This document shows, in pieces, positions 35,564 to 41,897 of a stretch of 64,000 nt of DNA (position 1 is its first letter; every line of letters begins with the position of its first letter). The notes below the pieces were generated by a model. The model worked only from the letters and a program-made list of their open reading frames with translations. It was not told where the DNA came from and did not search any database. The DNA lies in the NCBI GenBank assembly GCA_964628035.1, contig CAZVPI010000005.1, positions 83,048 through 147,047 of the forward strand, in the 5' to 3' direction. The translations under genes and the position numbers were made by a program. The DNA comes from an uncultured Clostridia bacterium (GTDB lineage Bacteria > Acidobacteriota > Aminicenantia > UBA2199).

Positions 35564-36931
35564 CTATTCCCTCTCGACGAATTCCATGTTGGCGAACTTG
35601 GTGAACTTGTCGAGGAAGGCCAGGGTGATCTTGCCGGTCGGGCCGTTGCGCTGCTTGGCGATGATCAGGTCGGCCTCGCCCTTTCTCTCGGAGTCCTTGT
35701 CGAACTGGTCGTCGCGGTGGATGAAGATGACCACGTCGGCGTCCTGCTCGATGGAGCCGCTCTCCTTGAGGTCCGACAGCTGGTACTTGGGCCCCTTCTC
35801 CCTCTTGCCGCCGCGGGTCTCGGGCGCGCGGTTGAGCTGGGCCAGGGCCACGACCGGGATCTGCAGCTCCTTGGCCAGCTCCTTGAGCGAGGCGGTGATG
35901 ATGGCCACCTCCTGGGCGCGCGTGTCGCTGCGGCGCAGGTGCTCGCCGGTGACCTTCATCAGCTGCAGGTAGTCGACAAAGACCACGTCCAGGTTCTTCT
36001 CGGCCTTCAGCTTGCGCGCCCGGGCCTTCATCTCGACGATGGACAGCGAGGCCGAATCGTCGATGTACAGCCGGGCCTTCTGCAGCTCGGAGGCGGCCAG
36101 CTCCAGGTCGCTCCACTCCTTTTTGGTCAGGTTGGGCCGGCCGGTGCGGATGGCGGCCATGCTCACCCGCGCCTGGATGGCCAGCATGCGCATCAGCACC
36201 TGCTGGCGCGACATCTCAATGGAGTAGAAGGCCACCGACTTCTCCTCCTTGACCGCCAGGTGCACGGCGATGTTCAGGGCCAGCGCCGTCTTGCCCATGG
36301 AGGGGCGGGCGGCGAAAACGATCAGGTCGCCCTTCTGGAAGCCCGAGGTGATGCCGTCCAGCTCGTAAAAGCCGGATTTCAGCCCCTGGCTCTCGCCCTT
36401 CTTCTGGATCTTCTCGATCAGGTCCATCGTCTCCGGGACCATGTCGGCGGTGGACTTGAAGCCGGCCTTCTCCCGCCACTCGGCGATGCGGATGAACTCC
36501 TCCTGCATCTCGTTGAGCAGGCCCACGGTGTCGGCGCCGGGCTCCACCCCCTTCTGGATGATCCCCCGCGAGGCCAGGATGATCTTGCGCAGCGTGGAGC
36601 GGTCCTTGACGATCTGGATGTATTCCTTGATGTCCAGGTTCTCGGGGATGTCGTCGACCAGGGCGGTGATGAAGGCGTGGCCGCCGACGAACTGCAGCTT
36701 CTTGCGCTTCTCTAGCAGGCTGGAGACGGTGATGATGTCGGCGGCCGAGCCGGCGTCGGCCAGCTGCAGCACGGCCTGGGCGATCAGCACGTGGCTGTCG
36801 CGGAAAAAGTCCTCGCTGACGAGCTCGGAGAAGACCTGGTTGATGTAGCGGTTGTCGACCAGCATCGCCCCCAACAGCGCCTTCTCGGCGATCTCGTCAT
36901 GGGGCAGGACCCCGTTGAGCTCCGGAGCCAT
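35564..36931 (-). CDS. dnaB: replicative DNA helicase
   Basis: AARPSMGKT, VDYLQL, AQLNR, LKESGSIEQDAD, KQRNGPTG. Confidence 0.96.
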   Translation of the reverse strand: MAPELNGVLPHDEIAEKALLGAMLVDNRYINQVFSELVSEDFFRDSHVLIAQAVLQLADAGSAADIITVSSLLEKRKKLQFVGGHAFITALVDDIPENLDIKEYIQIVKDRSTLRKIILASRGIIQKGVEPGADTVGLLNEMQEEFIRIAEWREKAGFKSTADMVPETMDLIEKIQKKGESQGLKSGFYELDGITSGFQKGDLIVFAARPSMGKTALALNIAVHLAVKEEKSVAFYSIEMSRQQVLMRMLAIQARVSMAAIRTGRPNLTKKEWSDLELAASELQKARLYIDDSASLSIVEMKARARKLKAEKNLDVVFVDYLQLMKVTGEHLRRSDTRAQEVAIITASLKELAKELQIPVVALAQLNRAPETRGGKREKGPKYQLSDLKESGSIEQDADVVIFIHRDDQFDKDSERKGEADLIIAKQRNGPTGKITLAFLDKFTKFANMEFVERE

Positions 36932-36938
36932 GGGCCGT

Positions 36939-37400
36939 TCAGGCCTGCGCTTCCTCTTCTTCCTTCAGGACCGTGACCGGGATCGCGGCTTCGACGCCCT
37001 GGAACAGCTTGATCCTGGCGGTGAATTCCCCCAGGCGCTTGATGGGCTCGTCGAGGTGGATCTTTTTCTTCTCCACGGCGACGCCCTGGTCGGCCAGCGC
37101 CTTCTCGATCTCGGCGGTCGTCACCGAGCCGAAGAGCACGTCGTTCTCACCGGCCTTCTTGCGCATGACCAGGCGCACGCCTTCCAGCTTGCGCTTCTGC
37201 TCGCCGGCGGCCAGCTTCTCCATCTCCAGCTTCTTCTGGTGCTTCTTCTTGCGGGCGGCCATCAGGGCCAGGTTGTGCTCGCTGACCTCGACGGCCAGAC
37301 GCCGCGGCATCAGGAAGTTGCGGGCGAAGCCCTTCTTGACCTCGACCACGTCGCCCAGCTGGCCCACCTTCTCCACGTCCGATGTCAGGATGACTTTCAT
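36939..37400 (-). CDS. rplI: 50S ribosomal protein L9
   Basis: [27 protein letters not shown]. Confidence 0.95.
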
Positions 37401-37672
37401 GACAGCCTCTTCTTTTCCTCGGTGAAGCGGATCAGCGCCATCTGCCGGGCGCGCTTGATGGCCTTGGACAGCTGCTTCTGGTGGTAGGCGCAGGTGCCGC
37501 TGACGCGGGCCGGGAAGATGCGCCCCGTCTCGGAGATGAAGTTCTCCAGCACCTTGTGGTTCTTGTAATCGATCAAATGCACGCGTTCCTTGCAGAAGGC
37601 GCAGAACTTCTTGCGCGCCGAATAATATTTCTTGGCGGGCTTGCCCTCGCCGGCGTTACTTCTCGGTTGCAT
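37397..37672 (-). CDS. rpsR: 30S ribosomal protein S18 (Zn-binding C+ form)
   Basis: [25 protein letters not shown]. Confidence 0.95.
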
Positions 37673-38087
37673 GGCTCTCCTCCTCGCTTTCGCCCGCGTC
37701 CCCGCCTTCCCTCTCCTCGCCGCGGTTCTCCAGGCTCTTCTTGCGGATGCGGTCGATCTTGGCCCAGCGCTTGGTCAGCTTGTTGGATTTCTTCAGCTTG
37801 TCGTCCAGGCGCAGGGTGATGAAGCGCAGCACCTTCTCCATCTGCTTCAGGCGCCGCTCCAGGGTGGCGACGACGCCGCCGTCCACCTGCGCCTGCACGA
37901 ACACGTAGTGCCCCTCCAGGTGCTTCTGGATGGGATAGGACAGCTTTTTCCGGCCCCACTCGTCCAGGCCCTCGATGACCCCCCCGGCCTTGGTGAGGAT
38001 CGAGGTGATGGCCTCGACGACCTTCTTGACTTCCTCGTCAGTCGCCTCGGGGGTGACGATGAAGCCGATCTCGTACCTGCTCGTCAT
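37656..38087 (-). CDS. rpsF: 30S ribosomal protein S6
   Basis: [21 protein letters not shown]. Confidence 0.95.
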
Positions 38088-38706
38088 GATTCCTCCTTGT
38101 GGATGGTTTAGCCTCTTCCTGAGGAAGAAGCAAGGAGTTGTTTCTCCTGTTGTATCGATTCATCACGTGATGAATGTCCTCTTGCAGGATGTCCTCGGCG
38201 GCGTCGGCGGCCCGCTCCGCCCCCGCACGCAGGGAGGCCAGCGGCCGGCCGCGCAGCGGCGTGAGCACGTAGCGCACCAGGTCGCCCACCTCGGGCCGCT
38301 CGGGGCGGATGCCGATGCGCAGGCGGGGGAACTCCTGGCTGCCCAGGTGCTGCAGGATCGAGCGCATCCCCTTGTGGCTGCCGGCGCTGCCGCGCTCGCG
38401 CAGGCGCACGCCGCCCAGCGGCAGGTCGATGTCGTCGTAGATGACGAGCAGCTCGCCGGCGTCCAGGTCGAACATGCGCCGCAGCTTGGCCACGGCCTGG
38501 CCCGATTCGTTCATGTAGGTCATGGGCTTGGCCAGGACCACGTCGCGACCGTGCAGCCGGGTCTTGCGGAAGCGCAGCAGGCCCCCCAGCGCGGCCAGCT
38601 CGACGCCATGGCGGCGGCACAGCTCGTCGATGCACAGGAAGCCCGCGTTGTGCGGGGTCTTCTCGTACTTCGCTTCGGGGTTGCCCAGTCCGATGAACGC
38701 AAAAAT
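38038..38706 (-). CDS. pth: peptidyl-tRNA hydrolase, apparent ATT start
   Basis: IGLGNP, TPHNAGF, KPMTYMNESG, YDDIDLP, GSHKG, RLRIGI; AGGAGG 5 nt before ATT at 38706. Confidence 0.9.
   Translation of the reverse strand: MFAFIGLGNPEAKYEKTPHNAGFLCIDELCRRHGVELAALGGLLRFRKTRLHGRDVVLAKPMTYMNESGQAVAKLRRMFDLDAGELLVIYDDIDLPLGGVRLRERGSAGSHKGMRSILQHLGSQEFPRLRIGIRPERPEVGDLVRYVLTPLRGRPLASLRAGAERAADAAEDILQEDIHHVMNRYNRRNNSLLLPQEEAKPSTRRNHDEQVRDRLHRHPRGD
38093..38137 (-). promoter_or_regulatory. structured rpsF leader, S6:S18 autoregulatory-type RNA
   Basis: CTCCTTG/CAAGGAG stem sequesters the SD; inner hairpin GCTTCTTCC/GGAAGAGGC; single-stranded CCA trinucleotides. Confidence 0.55.
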
Positions 38707-38715
38707 GGATCCCTC

Positions 38716-39456
38716 CTATTTCTTTTCCTTGCCCTTGTCGGCTTCCTTGCCGGGGGCGGACTTCTGGGCCGCGGCGCCCTTGCCGGCGGCTTCCTTGGCG
38801 GCCTCGCCTTCCTTGGCCTCGCCGGCGGCCGGGGCGGCGCCCTCGGCAGCGGCCTCGGGGGCGGCCTCGGGGGCGGCGACCTCTTCCTTGGCCTTGGCGG
38901 CCACCGAGCAGATGACGGTGTTGGCCGGCGAGATGTACTGGAAGGCGTCGTGCTTGGGCAGGTCGGCCACGCGGACGGCCTGGTTCAGGTGCAGGCCGGA
39001 GATATCCAGGCGGATCTCCTTGGGAATGCTGGTGGGCAGGCTGCGCACCAGCACCTCGCGGTGGATGAACTCCAGCAGCCCGTCCTCGGCCTTGACGCCG
39101 ACGGGCTCGCCCTCGAGCACCACCGGCACCTCGACGTCGACCGGCTTGTTCAGGTCGATGCGGATGAAGTCGACGTGGATGATGCGGTCGGAGAGGTAAT
39201 CGTACTGGATCTCCTTGATCATGGCGTCGAAGGTGGCCTTGTCGCCCTGGACGATGCGCAGGATCGAGTTGTCCTTGTTCTCCGAGCGGAGGATGCCCTT
39301 GACGTCGGCGAGCTGGACGGCGATGGGCACGCTCTCGGCGCTGATGCCGTAGACGACGGCCGGGACCTTGCCGGCGGCGCGCAGGTCCTTGCGGACGCGC
39401 TTGCTTATTTCGCTCCGGGGCTCGGCGTTGATGGTAATGATGTTCTCCATGTTCAC
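38716..39456 (-). CDS. rplY: 50S ribosomal protein L25/CTC
   Basis: VPAVVYG, IIHVDF, CTC-type C-terminal domain with Ala/Glu-rich tail. Confidence 0.93.
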   Translation of the reverse strand: MNMENIITINAEPRSEISKRVRKDLRAAGKVPAVVYGISAESVPIAVQLADVKGILRSENKDNSILRIVQGDKATFDAMIKEIQYDYLSDRIIHVDFIRIDLNKPVDVEVPVVLEGEPVGVKAEDGLLEFIHREVLVRSLPTSIPKEIRLDISGLHLNQAVRVADLPKHDAFQYISPANTVICSVAAKAKEEVAAPEAAPEAAAEGAAPAAGEAKEGEAAKEAAGKGAAAQKSAPGKEADKGKEKK

Positions 39457-39457
39457 C

Positions 39458-40411
39458 TCATTTTATCAGGAAAAGTTTGGATACGGAGGTCTCGCGGTGG
39501 ATGCTCTCGATGGCCTGGGCGAACAGCCGCCCCACCGACAGCACCTTGATCTTGGGGCACTCGCTGCGCGGGCAGCGGCGCGGGATGGTGTCGGTGACGA
39601 AGATCGTCTCCAGCGGCGCGGCGTTGATGCGGGCGATGGCCTGGCCGGAGAAGATGCCGTGGGTGCAGGCGGCGTAGATCTTGCGCGCGCCGCGCTCCTT
39701 CAGGGCGTTGATGGTGGCGCTCAGGGTGCCGGCGGTGTCGATGATGTCGTCGACGATGATGGCGTTCTTGCCGCGCACGTCGCCGATGATGTGCATCAGC
39801 TCGGCCACGTTGGGCTGGGTGCGCTTCTTGTCGGCGATGGCCAGGTCGGCGTTGAGCTTGCGGGCGAAGAGCCGCGCCCGCTCCACGCCGCCGGCGTCGG
39901 GGGCGACGATGACCACGTCCCTCAGGTTCATCTGCTTGAAGTGGGAGATGAACACCGGCAGGGCCATGAGGTTGTCCACCGGGATGTTGAAGAAGCCCTG
40001 GATCTGGGCGGCGTGCAGGTCGATGGTCAGCACGCGGGAGAAGCCCGCCGTCTCCAGCAGGTCGGCCAGGAGGCGCGCCGAGATGGCCACGCGCGGCCGG
40101 TCCTTGCGGTCCTGGCGGGCGTAGGCGTAATAGGTGATGACCGCGGTGATGCGCCGGGCCGAGGCGCGCTTGAAGGCGTCGGCCATCAGCAGCAGCTGCA
40201 TGATGTGGAAGTTGCTGTCGGCGCAGAGCGACTGCACGACGAAGACGTCGGCGCCGCGGACGTTCTCGTGGCTCTGGAAGCGGATCTCGCCGTCGGAAAA
40301 GACGTCGAGCACCGATTTCCCGAGGCGGCTGCGCAGGCGGCCGGCGATCTCGCCGGCCAGCTTCTCGTTCGAGGTGCCGGAAAAGATCAGGAACTTGTTG
40401 CCGTTGATCAT
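39458..40411 (-). CDS. prs: ribose-phosphate pyrophosphokinase
   Basis: FSDGEI, YYAYARQDRK, DLHAAQ, APDAGG, VDDIIDTAGT. Confidence 0.96.
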   Translation of the reverse strand: MINGNKFLIFSGTSNEKLAGEIAGRLRSRLGKSVLDVFSDGEIRFQSHENVRGADVFVVQSLCADSNFHIMQLLLMADAFKRASARRITAVITYYAYARQDRKDRPRVAISARLLADLLETAGFSRVLTIDLHAAQIQGFFNIPVDNLMALPVFISHFKQMNLRDVVIVAPDAGGVERARLFARKLNADLAIADKKRTQPNVAELMHIIGDVRGKNAIIVDDIIDTAGTLSATINALKERGARKIYAACTHGIFSGQAIARINAAPLETIFVTDTIPRRCPRSECPKIKVLSVGRLFAQAIESIHRETSVSKLFLIK

Positions 40412-41328
40412 GTGGTTTTCCTGGGGCGGGAGGATTCGAACCTCCGAATCTCGGCTCCAAAGGCCGATGCCTTACCGCTTGGCCACACCCCAATGCTCTC
40501 CTGGTATTGAATTGGGCCGATGAAGCGGGTGAGCAGCGTACCCGGCAGGCGCCGGGCCAGGGCGGACAGCCGCCTGCCGTGGCCGATGGCGAACACCGCC
40601 GCGCCGCTGCCTGTCATCTGCACGAACCCGCCTCCTGCTTGCGCCATTTTTTCCTTGATTTCCCTGATCCGCGGGAACAATTCAAAGGTAACTCGTTCCA
40701 GATCGTTTCGCAATATGGAGAAGTCGCCCTTTCTCAGGAAGAGTTGTATTTTACTGGGAAAAACGGCATTTGTCAAGCGCAGTCGGGAAAAGACCAGGGC
40801 CGTGGAAACGGCCGCCGCAGGCAGGTGCAGGGCGACAGCGCGCGGGCGCAGTGCGGGCAGCGGGGTCAGCTCGTCCCCGATCCCCTCCCCCAGCGCCGTG
40901 CCGCCGAGAAGGAAGAAGGGGACGTCGGCCCCCAGGACCGCGGCCAGGTCGTGCAGCTGCGCCAGGGGGATGCCCAGCCCGAAGTGGCGGTCCAGGAAGC
41001 GCAGCATCACGGCGGCGTTGCCGCTTCCCCCGCCCAGGCCCGCCCCGGGGGGGATGCGCTTGCGCACGCGCACGGTGAAGCCGCGGCGCAGCCGCCAGTT
41101 CTCGGCGAGCAGCCGGTAGGCGCGGGCCATGGTGTTGCGCCCGTCCCAGGGGACGCGCGGGTCGCTGCCGCTCAGGCGCAGCCGCGCCTGCGCGATCTCG
41201 CGCAGTTCGAGGTCGTCGTGCAGGGCCAGGGTCTGGAAGACGGTGCGCAGGGTGTGGTAGCCGTCCGGGCGGCGGCCGGTGATCTCCAGCCCCAGGTTGA
41301 TCTTGGCGTGGGAGCGGAGCCGGATCAC
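40408..41328 (-). CDS. ispE: 4-diphosphocytidyl-2-C-methyl-D-erythritol kinase; ORF extends through tRNA-Gln
   Basis: AKINLGL, GAGLGGGS, GADVPFF, NDLE, MTGSG; GTG start at 41328, first stop at 40408. Confidence 0.92.
   Translation of the reverse strand: MIRLRSHAKINLGLEITGRRPDGYHTLRTVFQTLALHDDLELREIAQARLRLSGSDPRVPWDGRNTMARAYRLLAENWRLRRGFTVRVRKRIPPGAGLGGGSGNAAVMLRFLDRHFGLGIPLAQLHDLAAVLGADVPFFLLGGTALGEGIGDELTPLPALRPRAVALHLPAAAVSTALVFSRLRLTNAVFPSKIQLFLRKGDFSILRNDLERVTFELFPRIREIKEKMAQAGGGFVQMTGSGAAVFAIGHGRRLSALARRLPGTLLTRFIGPIQYQESIGVWPSGKASAFGAEIRRFESSRPRKTT
40421..40492 (-). tRNA. tRNA-Gln(TTG), CCA not encoded
   Basis: TGGGGTG/CGCCCCA acceptor stem, anticodon loop CTTTGGA, GGTTCGAATCC T-arm. 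Confidence 0.93.
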
Positions 41329-41897
41329 GGGCCCAGGACCTCCTCCAGTTCGGCGGCCCGGTAGCGCCTTTCGTAGTCGACCCAGACGAGCCTTCCAGGC
41401 CTGGCCTCGATCTTGAGGAGGCGCAGGGACAGCTCGGCCTCCCCGCGCCGCAGGCGCACCTGCCGCGGCGCGGCCCCGGTCTCGCCCTCCAGCCAGGCCT
41501 CGATGCCGCTTTCGGCCAGGCGCTGCGGCACCCGCCCCTCCAGCAGCAGCGCTTTCAACTCGGCCAGCGGCAGGCCGATGCCCCACAGCCGTCCGAGCAG
41601 GAGGCTGAAATCGCCTTTCCAGTAGGTCCGGGACGAAAAATTGGCCAGCAGCGCTTCCTCGCCGGCCACGGCCAGCTCCAGGCCTGCCTGGTTGAGCGGG
41701 GTGAAAAAGACGAATTTCGATCGCTCGCCGCCGCAGCGCCAGAAGACCCTGCCGCTCTGGCGCTCCCTCCCCTCGCGGAAGGCGAAACGGGCGCTGATGG
41801 CGCGGAAAGAGGGCTCCTCCCCGGGTTCAAGGACCGGCCTGGCTGTCCGGCAGGAGGCGGCCAGAACGAGAAGGAGCAGAAGGAGGGCTGGCTTCAT
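41325..41897 (-). CDS. LolB-like outer-membrane lipoprotein
   Basis: lipobox LAASC; FTPLNQ and WGIGLPL resemble LolB-family segments; lolB-ispE-tRNA-Gln-prs synteny. Confidence 0.55.
   Translation of the reverse strand: MKPALLLLLLVLAASCRTARPVLEPGEEPSFRAISARFAFREGRERQSGRVFWRCGGERSKFVFFTPLNQAGLELAVAGEEALLANFSSRTYWKGDFSLLLGRLWGIGLPLAELKALLLEGRVPQRLAESGIEAWLEGETGAAPRQVRLRRGEAELSLRLLKIEARPGRLVWVDYERRYRAAELEEVLGP

Follow-up and report, generated by a model that had tools for sequence, protein, structure and literature searches.

The gene pth encodes Pth, a peptidyl-tRNA hydrolase of the PTH1 family (TIGR00447, PF01195) and an essential enzyme of tRNA recycling and translation quality control. We describe its start site in a stretch of 64,000 nucleotides (nt) from an uncultured bacterium of the Aminicenantes type (Acidobacteriota), deposited as a Clostridia bacterium (assembly GCA_964628035.1, contig CAZVPI010000005.1, positions 83,048 to 147,047 of the forward strand). 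This whole stretch is called the window below, and all positions refer to it. On the minus strand, pth lies between rplY (ribosomal protein bL25/Ctc) and rpsF (S6). The pth of this bacterium very likely (with a probability of about 0.8) starts at a non-canonical AUU codon decoded as formylmethionine (fMet). The elements of the start site are the following.

38712–38717, minus strand: AGGAGG, Shine–Dalgarno of pth, from the sequence; it shares the last two bases of the rplY stop and is followed by the 5-nt spacer GATCC (38711–38707)
38704–38706, minus strand: ATT, proposed initiation codon of pth (read as fMet), from conservation and the alignment to Met1
38700–38703, minus strand: codon 2 (TTT) and the G of codon 3, which complete the conserved U-tract AUUUUUG; it contains an out-of-frame TTG (38702–38700), 9 nt from the Shine–Dalgarno
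38038–38706, minus strand: coding sequence of pth from the ATT, 222 codons, with the stop at 38040–38038 and His19 at 38652–38650, from the translation and TIGR00447
38539–38541, minus strand: GTG, codon 56, the first canonical in-frame start in the list of open reading frames (ORFs)

Read along the minus strand, the junction is ...GAA AAG AAA TAG GAG GGA TCC ATT TTT GCG TTC ATC GGA CTG GGC AAC CCC. The frame opened by the ATT translates to IFAFIGLGNPEAKYEKTPHNAGF..., reaching IFAFIGLGNP, and the N-terminal tryptic peptide expected from an AUU start would be (f)MFAFIGLGNPEAK. An earlier reading of the sequence alone (the sequence-only reading) had placed the ATT five residues before GLGNP and 5 nt after AGGAGG, and the window agrees with it in every element. 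Between the in-frame TAG, three codons upstream of the ATT, and GLGNP, the window contains no ATG, GTG or TTG; the TAG leaves pth with no canonical start, as that reading had held, and the next candidate is the GTG at codon 56. A start there would delete the GLGNP strand together with Asn9 and the catalytic His19. In the relatives (58 junctions, see below), a canonical in-frame start that preserves the Pth N terminus is likewise absent. No other Shine–Dalgarno with an ATT opens a long ORF lacking an upstream canonical start in the 64 kb. ATT starts as a general habit of the genome were rejected, pth being the sole such site in the window.

The Pth domain and the accuracy of the sequence

The protein read from the ATT matches the NCBIfam pth equivalog TIGR00447 with 168.5 bits (cut-off 100; 1.2e-49), residues 4–172 falling on profile positions 3–171 of 172. 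The best Pth match in the PDB has a value of 2.5e-35. Residues 4–185 align with residues 4–185 of 8iu6_A and residues 4–187 with residues 4–187 of 4yly_A; since both alignments run residue for residue from position 4, the ATT corresponds to Met1 of the two chains. The motifs GLGNP (Asn9), TPHNAGF (His19), YMNESG (Asn) and YDDIDLP (Asp) match their equivalents in solved Pth structures. We take Asn9 and His19 to be the counterparts of E. coli Asn10 and His20. In the E. coli enzyme, the catalytic residues are His20 (the catalytic base) with Asp93, plus Asn10 and Asn68 (PMC3488237).

The equivalent of E. coli Asn114 (in GHNG) is not conserved: the window has SHKG, with Lys for Asn (around 38380–38372, minus strand, within GSAGSHKGMRS). 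HKG is present in 110 of 111 family Pth proteins and HRG in one, and HNG in 8/9 outgroup Pth as well as in the Pth of a Terriglobia locus (L017). In E. coli, Asn114 forms part of the lining of the oxyanion hole; kcat falls about 100-fold in the Ala mutant. Judged from the profile match, the Lys at this position would leave the membership of the window protein in the Pth family unaffected.

The window Pth has 222 residues, versus the usual 208, and is therefore 14 residues longer. The usual stop, placed after ...STRRK(N/H)D and overlapping the ATG of rpsF, is absent from the window, so that pth and rpsF overlap by 50 nt (38038–38087, minus strand).

All sampled 31-mers of positions 38400–39000 are contained in each of 20 public runs. 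Contigs from four of these, all DNA runs, belonging to four separate studies (anaerobic digester, sludge, biogas fermenter and soil metagenomes) and with depths of 16–56, have 0 differences over 38600–38820. At 38704, where a check had been proposed, the independent assemblies all read ATT and none ATG. Metatranscriptome contigs (three runs) traverse the rplY–pth junction with no change; one RNA-derived contig covers 37300–40450 (from rpsR to prs) and another 38680–38938. The unchanged RNA contigs fit co-transcription and speak against RNA editing. The ATT could in principle be a sequencing or assembly error, a recent mutation or the trace of a decaying pth pseudogene, and the sole pointer in that direction is the missing canonical start. 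The identity of four DNA studies and of the RNA contigs, the ATT in 58/58 relatives, and a full-length Pth domain that exceeds the curated cut-off and retains the His, Asp and Asn residues refute it, leaving it with almost no probability.

Conservation of the ATT and of its context

A protein-guided scan with one genome per species yielded 15 Aminicenantes-type genomes with Pth proteins 61–87% identical to that of the window. All 15 have ATT TTT G at the homologous site, with AGGAGG(G) 4–5 nt upstream. The five more distant loci reached through protein databases (50–57% identity) all have ATT too, in junctions such as TAA ATT CTT GTC GTG..., TAG ATT TTT..., or TAG followed by 10 nt and then ATT. 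In addition, 241 million metagenome records were scanned with a pattern blind to the start, in which GGAGG and codons of the FxFIGLGNP type were fixed and the start codon was free. ATT occurs in 43/43 family junctions so retrieved, and GTG, ATG or TTG in the 25/25 unrelated Pth. After pooling and removal of duplicates, ATT is present in 58/58 distinct family junctions, over a range of Pth identities of 38–87%. In the most distant relative (L153, 38%), the order prs-rplY-pth is retained and the junction reads ...AAG GAG GCC TGA ATT. The distance from GGAGG to the ATT downstream of it is 5 nt in 55 junctions and 4 nt in the other three. The comparison of related pth 5′ ends that the sequence-only reading had called for thus gave ATT everywhere and no relative with ATG. 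Because the homologous ATT occurs in all 58 junctions and is the only site of its kind in the 64 kb, it lies far beyond chance. Outside the family, the Pth of the species scan start with ATG, GTG or TTG, mostly 3–5 codons before GLGNP and in some cases 8–18.

Five loci with the Aminicenantes-type prs-rplY-pth arrangement (L001, L010, L013–L015) come from bins labelled Clostridia, Chrysiogenia/Chrysiogenales or Patescibacteria; these bins are probably mislabelled or contaminated.

Changes were counted by parsimony on a neighbour-joining tree of 53 sequences, for which coding sequence lying downstream of the columns under test was used. On this tree, the three positions of the ATT undergo 0 changes, and so does the GGAGG core; the third positions of codons 3–12 change 3–12 times each. 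The T-to-G change that would give ATG, a single transversion away, is never found in the 58 junctions. At codon 5, also mainly Ile, ATC occurs in 45 junctions and ATT in 10 (GTC occurs as well), so that the ATT at codon 1 is not merely a local preference among Ile codons. Selection thus appears, from these alignments, to act on the nucleotides of the ATT and not on an Ile residue. In codons 2–5 (F, A/V, F, I), the amino acids are kept and the synonymous sites vary; these codons are conserved as protein, which indicates that they are translated. Downstream near-starts drift to non-starts, with GTC among the codons at position 5 and CTC or CTT among those at position 7.

The public annotations differ from such a start. 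Among 111 family protein clusters (P0001–P0111) from a large protein collection, the start was called at the Leu of GLGNP in 51 and after the catalytic His in 57, so that 108 are truncated at the N terminus. Of the remaining three, one starts at a GTG that precedes GLGNP by two codons, one is lengthened artificially by a start at an upstream GTG located in rplY (P0098, locus L085), and one starts at the homologous ATT. The last record, NCBI JAFGST010000036.1 (L081), is correctly annotated as MFAFIGLGNP...; other NCBI and JGI entries are truncated. A protein beginning with MF[AV]F at the ATT position therefore occurs in only 1/111 clusters, and the underlying DNA is ATT. With so strong a Shine–Dalgarno in front of it, a canonical codon would have been picked up by gene callers, and the rarity of MF[AV]F speaks for ATT across the clusters.

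These calls are also what supports a start further downstream, either at a TTG for the Leu of GLGNP or at a later GTG or ATG (such as codon 56), with the ATT region as a spacer. The Leu codon is, however, CTG, CTC or CTT in 25/58 junctions, that of the window included, and the later codons would remove Asn9 and His19. The Shine–Dalgarno, 5 nt away from the ATT, is separated from the Leu codon by over 20 nt. Codons 2–5 show the conservation of protein with synonymous changes just described, and the solved Pth structures possess a matching N-terminal strand. A downstream start is accordingly very improbable.

Codon 2 has a marked preference. It is TTT in 54 junctions, CTT in 3, CTC in 1 and TTC in none of the 58; for the Phe at codon 4, the counts are 47 TTC and 3 TTT. 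An out-of-frame TTG is thereby kept in 57/58 junctions and opens a +1 ORF of 31–63 codons that terminates at a TGA inside the conserved Pro-Met-Thr codons (CCN-ATG-ACN). One could imagine that the UUG at +5 to +7 is the main initiation site, a decoy that leads ribosomes into the short +1 ORF and helps to set the output of Pth or, less plausibly, a site that feeds the pth frame through a shift at initiation. We know of no mechanism of frameshifting at initiation. The decoy would account for the TTG itself and for codon 2 being TTT or CTT instead of the otherwise preferred TTC or CTC, and its 9-nt spacing from the Shine–Dalgarno is in the usual range. Yet the whole signal lies in a single free nucleotide (+6), the TTG is missing in L085, and the end of the +1 ORF, at 31–63 codons, is a by-product of the Pro-Met-Thr codons. 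In addition, pcnB of E. coli begins with AUU UUU and has no UUG, which favours a U-rich context rather than a second start. We regard the decoy as improbable, if somewhat less so than a downstream start of Pth. The preference for TTT may reflect an A/U-rich start context as in pcnB or, alternatively, a competing start.

The rplY stop codon and the surrounding operon

The rplY stop lies 0–10 nt before the ATT in all 58 junctions, a proximity suited to termination–reinitiation, and RNA-derived contigs span rplY and pth (DNA carry-over is possible in them). In about 35 of the 58, the stop directly abuts the ATT; it is mostly TAA, with TAG in 2 and TGA in 1. A TAG in frame, 9 nt upstream of the ATT as in the window, occurs in 19/58, and four of those 19 (L108, L127, L145, L135) have a second in-frame stop adjoining the ATT (TAG...TAA or TAG...TGA). 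Four others (L003, L006, L090, L085) have the rplY stop 8 or 10 nt before the ATT and thus in another frame. What is constant across the junctions is the Shine–Dalgarno, its spacing and the ATT. That pth is in frame with the rplY amber stop, as had been noticed from the sequence, is thus true of the window and incidental to the family, where the stop usually abuts the ATT.

The same geometry bears on the other proposal made from the sequence, namely that read-through of the amber stop yields an L25–Pth fusion in which the ATT is an internal Ile codon. The in-frame TAG of the window and of the 19 junctions is compatible with it, and so are the in-frame abutting stops in about 35. It is contradicted by the out-of-frame stops in four lineages, by the doubled stops in four more and by the use of TAA, TAG or TGA depending on the relative. 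Moreover, an Ile codon inside a fusion should shift to ATC over time, as seen at codon 5, yet the ATT never changes, and a conserved Shine–Dalgarno at start spacing would be purposeless. With a stop so variable in phase, number and identity, the fusion could not be a conserved product. As far as these junctions tell, it is effectively excluded as a conserved mechanism.

The neighbours of pth, with the origin of each assignment, are listed here in the order of transcription.

40420–40493, minus strand: tRNA-Gln (anticodon TTG), between prs and an ORF at 40408–41586
39458–40411, minus strand: prs (ribose-phosphate pyrophosphokinase), from the ORF list and the Pfam labels on the genes of relatives; it ends just upstream of the rplY start
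38716–39450, minus strand: rplY (bL25/Ctc), TIGR00731 bL25_bact_ctc with 138.8 bits for a cut-off of 73.1; Lys-rich tail ...KGKEKK; stop TAG at 38718–38716
37656–38087, minus strand: rpsF (S6), from the ORF list and relatives; its ATG is 4 nt after an AGGAGG within the 3′ end of pth
37397–37672, minus strand: rpsR, from the ORF list; same order in relatives
36939–37400, minus strand: rplI, from the ORF list; same order in relatives
35564–36931, minus strand: dnaB, from the ORF list; 7 nt after rplI, it forms with rpsR and rplI the rest of the presumed operon

The gene order is therefore tRNA-Gln, prs, rplY, pth, rpsF, rpsR, rplI, dnaB, with gaps or overlaps of a few bases. The tRNA-Gln ends 8 nt before the prs ATG and may be co-transcribed with prs-rplY-pth. 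The start of rplY is ambiguous, since a GTG at 39456 stands two codons upstream of the ATG at 39450; this GTG is included in GAGGTG, a possible Shine–Dalgarno for the ATG. In many bacteria, the order is rpsF-ssb-rpsR-rplI; here, rpsR follows rpsF directly, with a 17-nt overlap and no ssb between them.

The Shine–Dalgarno of pth is encoded by the last codons of rplY (K-E-G). In the relatives, the two Arg codons AGG AGG of the Pth tail form in the same way the Shine–Dalgarno of rpsF. The two start sites can be compared directly, AGGAGG-AATC-ATG for rpsF and AGGAGG-GATCC-ATT for pth: rpsF has the same AGGAGG but an ATG, so that the start codon is the only weak element of the pth site. A conserved hairpin hiding the Shine–Dalgarno and the AUU was not detected (z-score of −0.9 for the window fold; 0 pairs with RNAalifold on 25 diverse junctions). 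A classical coupling hairpin, which would make pth depend on melting by the upstream ribosome, was dismissed because no structure is conserved. The rplY–pth junction contains no known RNA element, the Rfam matches in the window being two tRNAs only.

Proposed weak initiation at the AUU and its possible control

In the explanation we favour, 30S subunits or ribosomes finishing L25 would be held at the junction by the Shine–Dalgarno and restart on the AUU; they would stay on the spot because this Shine–Dalgarno is embedded in the last rplY codons and the stop. Free 30S subunits could bind the pth Shine–Dalgarno as well, and a share of the initiations probably comes from termination–reinitiation after rplY. 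Ribosomes would take AUU as a start much less easily than AUG, and the rate of Pth synthesis would be only a small part of that of L25, S6, S18 and L9. A low output of Pth may then be the selected property, and the simplest purpose would be to hold the enzyme far below the ribosomal proteins encoded on the same mRNA.

Several points weigh against this explanation. That initiation takes place at the AUU itself is what we infer from the sequences, and so is the benefit for which a weak start would have been selected. A strong Shine–Dalgarno beside a weak codon is not the simplest route to low output. Part of the conservation of the ATT could reflect shared ancestry, though the neighbouring sites are saturated. 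In one sub-lineage (L082/L083), codon 4 is a GTG and so a potential in-frame start, although 14 nt separate it from the Shine–Dalgarno. The RNA contigs may hold DNA carry-over, which makes a transcript running from rplY into pth less firm. Finally, tight rplY–pth junctions with canonical starts exist elsewhere, with TAG GTG in three loci (L026, L046, L052) and gaps of 3–15 nt in four (L028, L059, L067, L080). Such junctions with GTG or ATG in other phyla indicate that compaction alone does not force a weak start; we therefore do not regard a tight rplY–pth junction as generally sufficient to explain the ATT.

The three spacerless TAG GTG loci belong to unrelated genomes of Actinomycetes and Gaiellaceae, and their Pth has an 18-residue N-terminal extension (VRLFRRGE...LDLLVAGLGNP). 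Gaiellaceae-like actinobacterial loci had been considered as a second lineage with a non-canonical pth start and were discarded, the start being a GTG or ATG 18 codons before GLGNP. In Terriglobia, the gene order is the same, with spacers of 122 and 145 nt around pth and an ATG start.

The sequence-only reading had also suggested that Pth synthesis may be tuned by initiation factor 3 (IF3), which by analogy with infC and pcnB of E. coli is plausible. The AUU would then be a sensor, with Pth going up under a shortage of IF3 (or of its fidelity function) and down when IF3 is abundant, or with a response to ppGpp or temperature. This would refine the explanation by weak initiation and is not exclusive of it. 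IF3 discriminates against AUU, and infC autoregulates by this means (PMC5499595); in vitro, mRNAs with AUU are notably sensitive to cold, nutrient limitation and ppGpp (PMC5499595). IF3 is, besides, among the factors that promote the release of peptidyl-tRNA, the source of the Pth substrate (PMC3488237). A maximal Shine–Dalgarno with an AUU would suggest strong binding of the 30S subunit with a gated acceptance of the codon. The sign is awkward, however, since more IF3 would mean more drop-off and yet less Pth. No match to infC was obtained by tblastn in the window or in any fetched locus. On balance, the sensor is possible but doubtful. A broader version seems to us unlikely: a sensor common to the clade, in which Pth would be the second IF3-gated translation gene after infC and recycling would be tied to the level of IF3, to ppGpp and to temperature, the UUG four bases downstream being perhaps a decoy.

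The known AUU starts offer the closest comparisons. In E. coli, infC and pcnB are the only confirmed ones, according to a preprint on initiation from all 64 codons (bioRxiv 10.1101/063800). In one system, AUU gave about 5% of the output of AUG, and AUU mRNAs compete poorly (PMC5499595). Like pth, infC is a gene of the translation apparatus with a conserved AUU kept by selection, and in infC the AUU leads to lower, IF3-sensitive initiation (PMC5499595; bioRxiv 10.1101/063800). In the case of infC, the discriminating factor is the gene product, IF3 itself, so that the loop is autoregulatory; Pth is not known to take part in the selection of start codons. The AUU of infC is widespread in bacteria, whereas that of pth was found in the Aminicenantes-type clade only, 0–10 nt after the stop of a ribosomal-protein gene. 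The annotated start of pcnB in MG1655 is ATT TTT ACC, with the same first two codons as pth of the window. The output of pcnB (poly(A) polymerase I) is kept low by the AUU (bioRxiv 10.1101/063800); it lies outside any ribosomal-protein operon, and the pth ATT is invariant over a whole clade.

Coupled operon junctions resemble rplY–pth in having adjacent or overlapping stops and starts and a Shine–Dalgarno inside the upstream gene. Ordinarily, such junctions restart on AUG, GUG or UUG (as with the TAG GTG of unrelated phyla at rplY–pth); here, the codon is AUU. In Listeria, start mutations of rsbW from ATG to ATA or ATT gave translation in the order ATG > ATA > ATT and altered the stoichiometry of the operon proteins (PMC13068326). 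Those changes are recent, selected in the laboratory and restricted to single strains; the ATT of pth is ancient and fixed throughout the clade.

Searches of the literature uncovered neither an AUU or ATT start for pth nor any peculiarity of start codons in Aminicenantes; a start of pth at this codon exists in one annotation, and we found no publication that describes it. Gene callers limited to ATG, GTG and TTG distort functional calls, alignments and the use of Pth as a marker gene in Aminicenantes genomes; JAFGST010000036.1 shows that the correct call is possible. Confirmed AUU starts are very few in bacteria, and pth would provide a clean example from nature of a start codon selected to be weak or gated. 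It would also offer a comparison case for how the gene of an enzyme, set between genes of ribosomal proteins, stays at low output.

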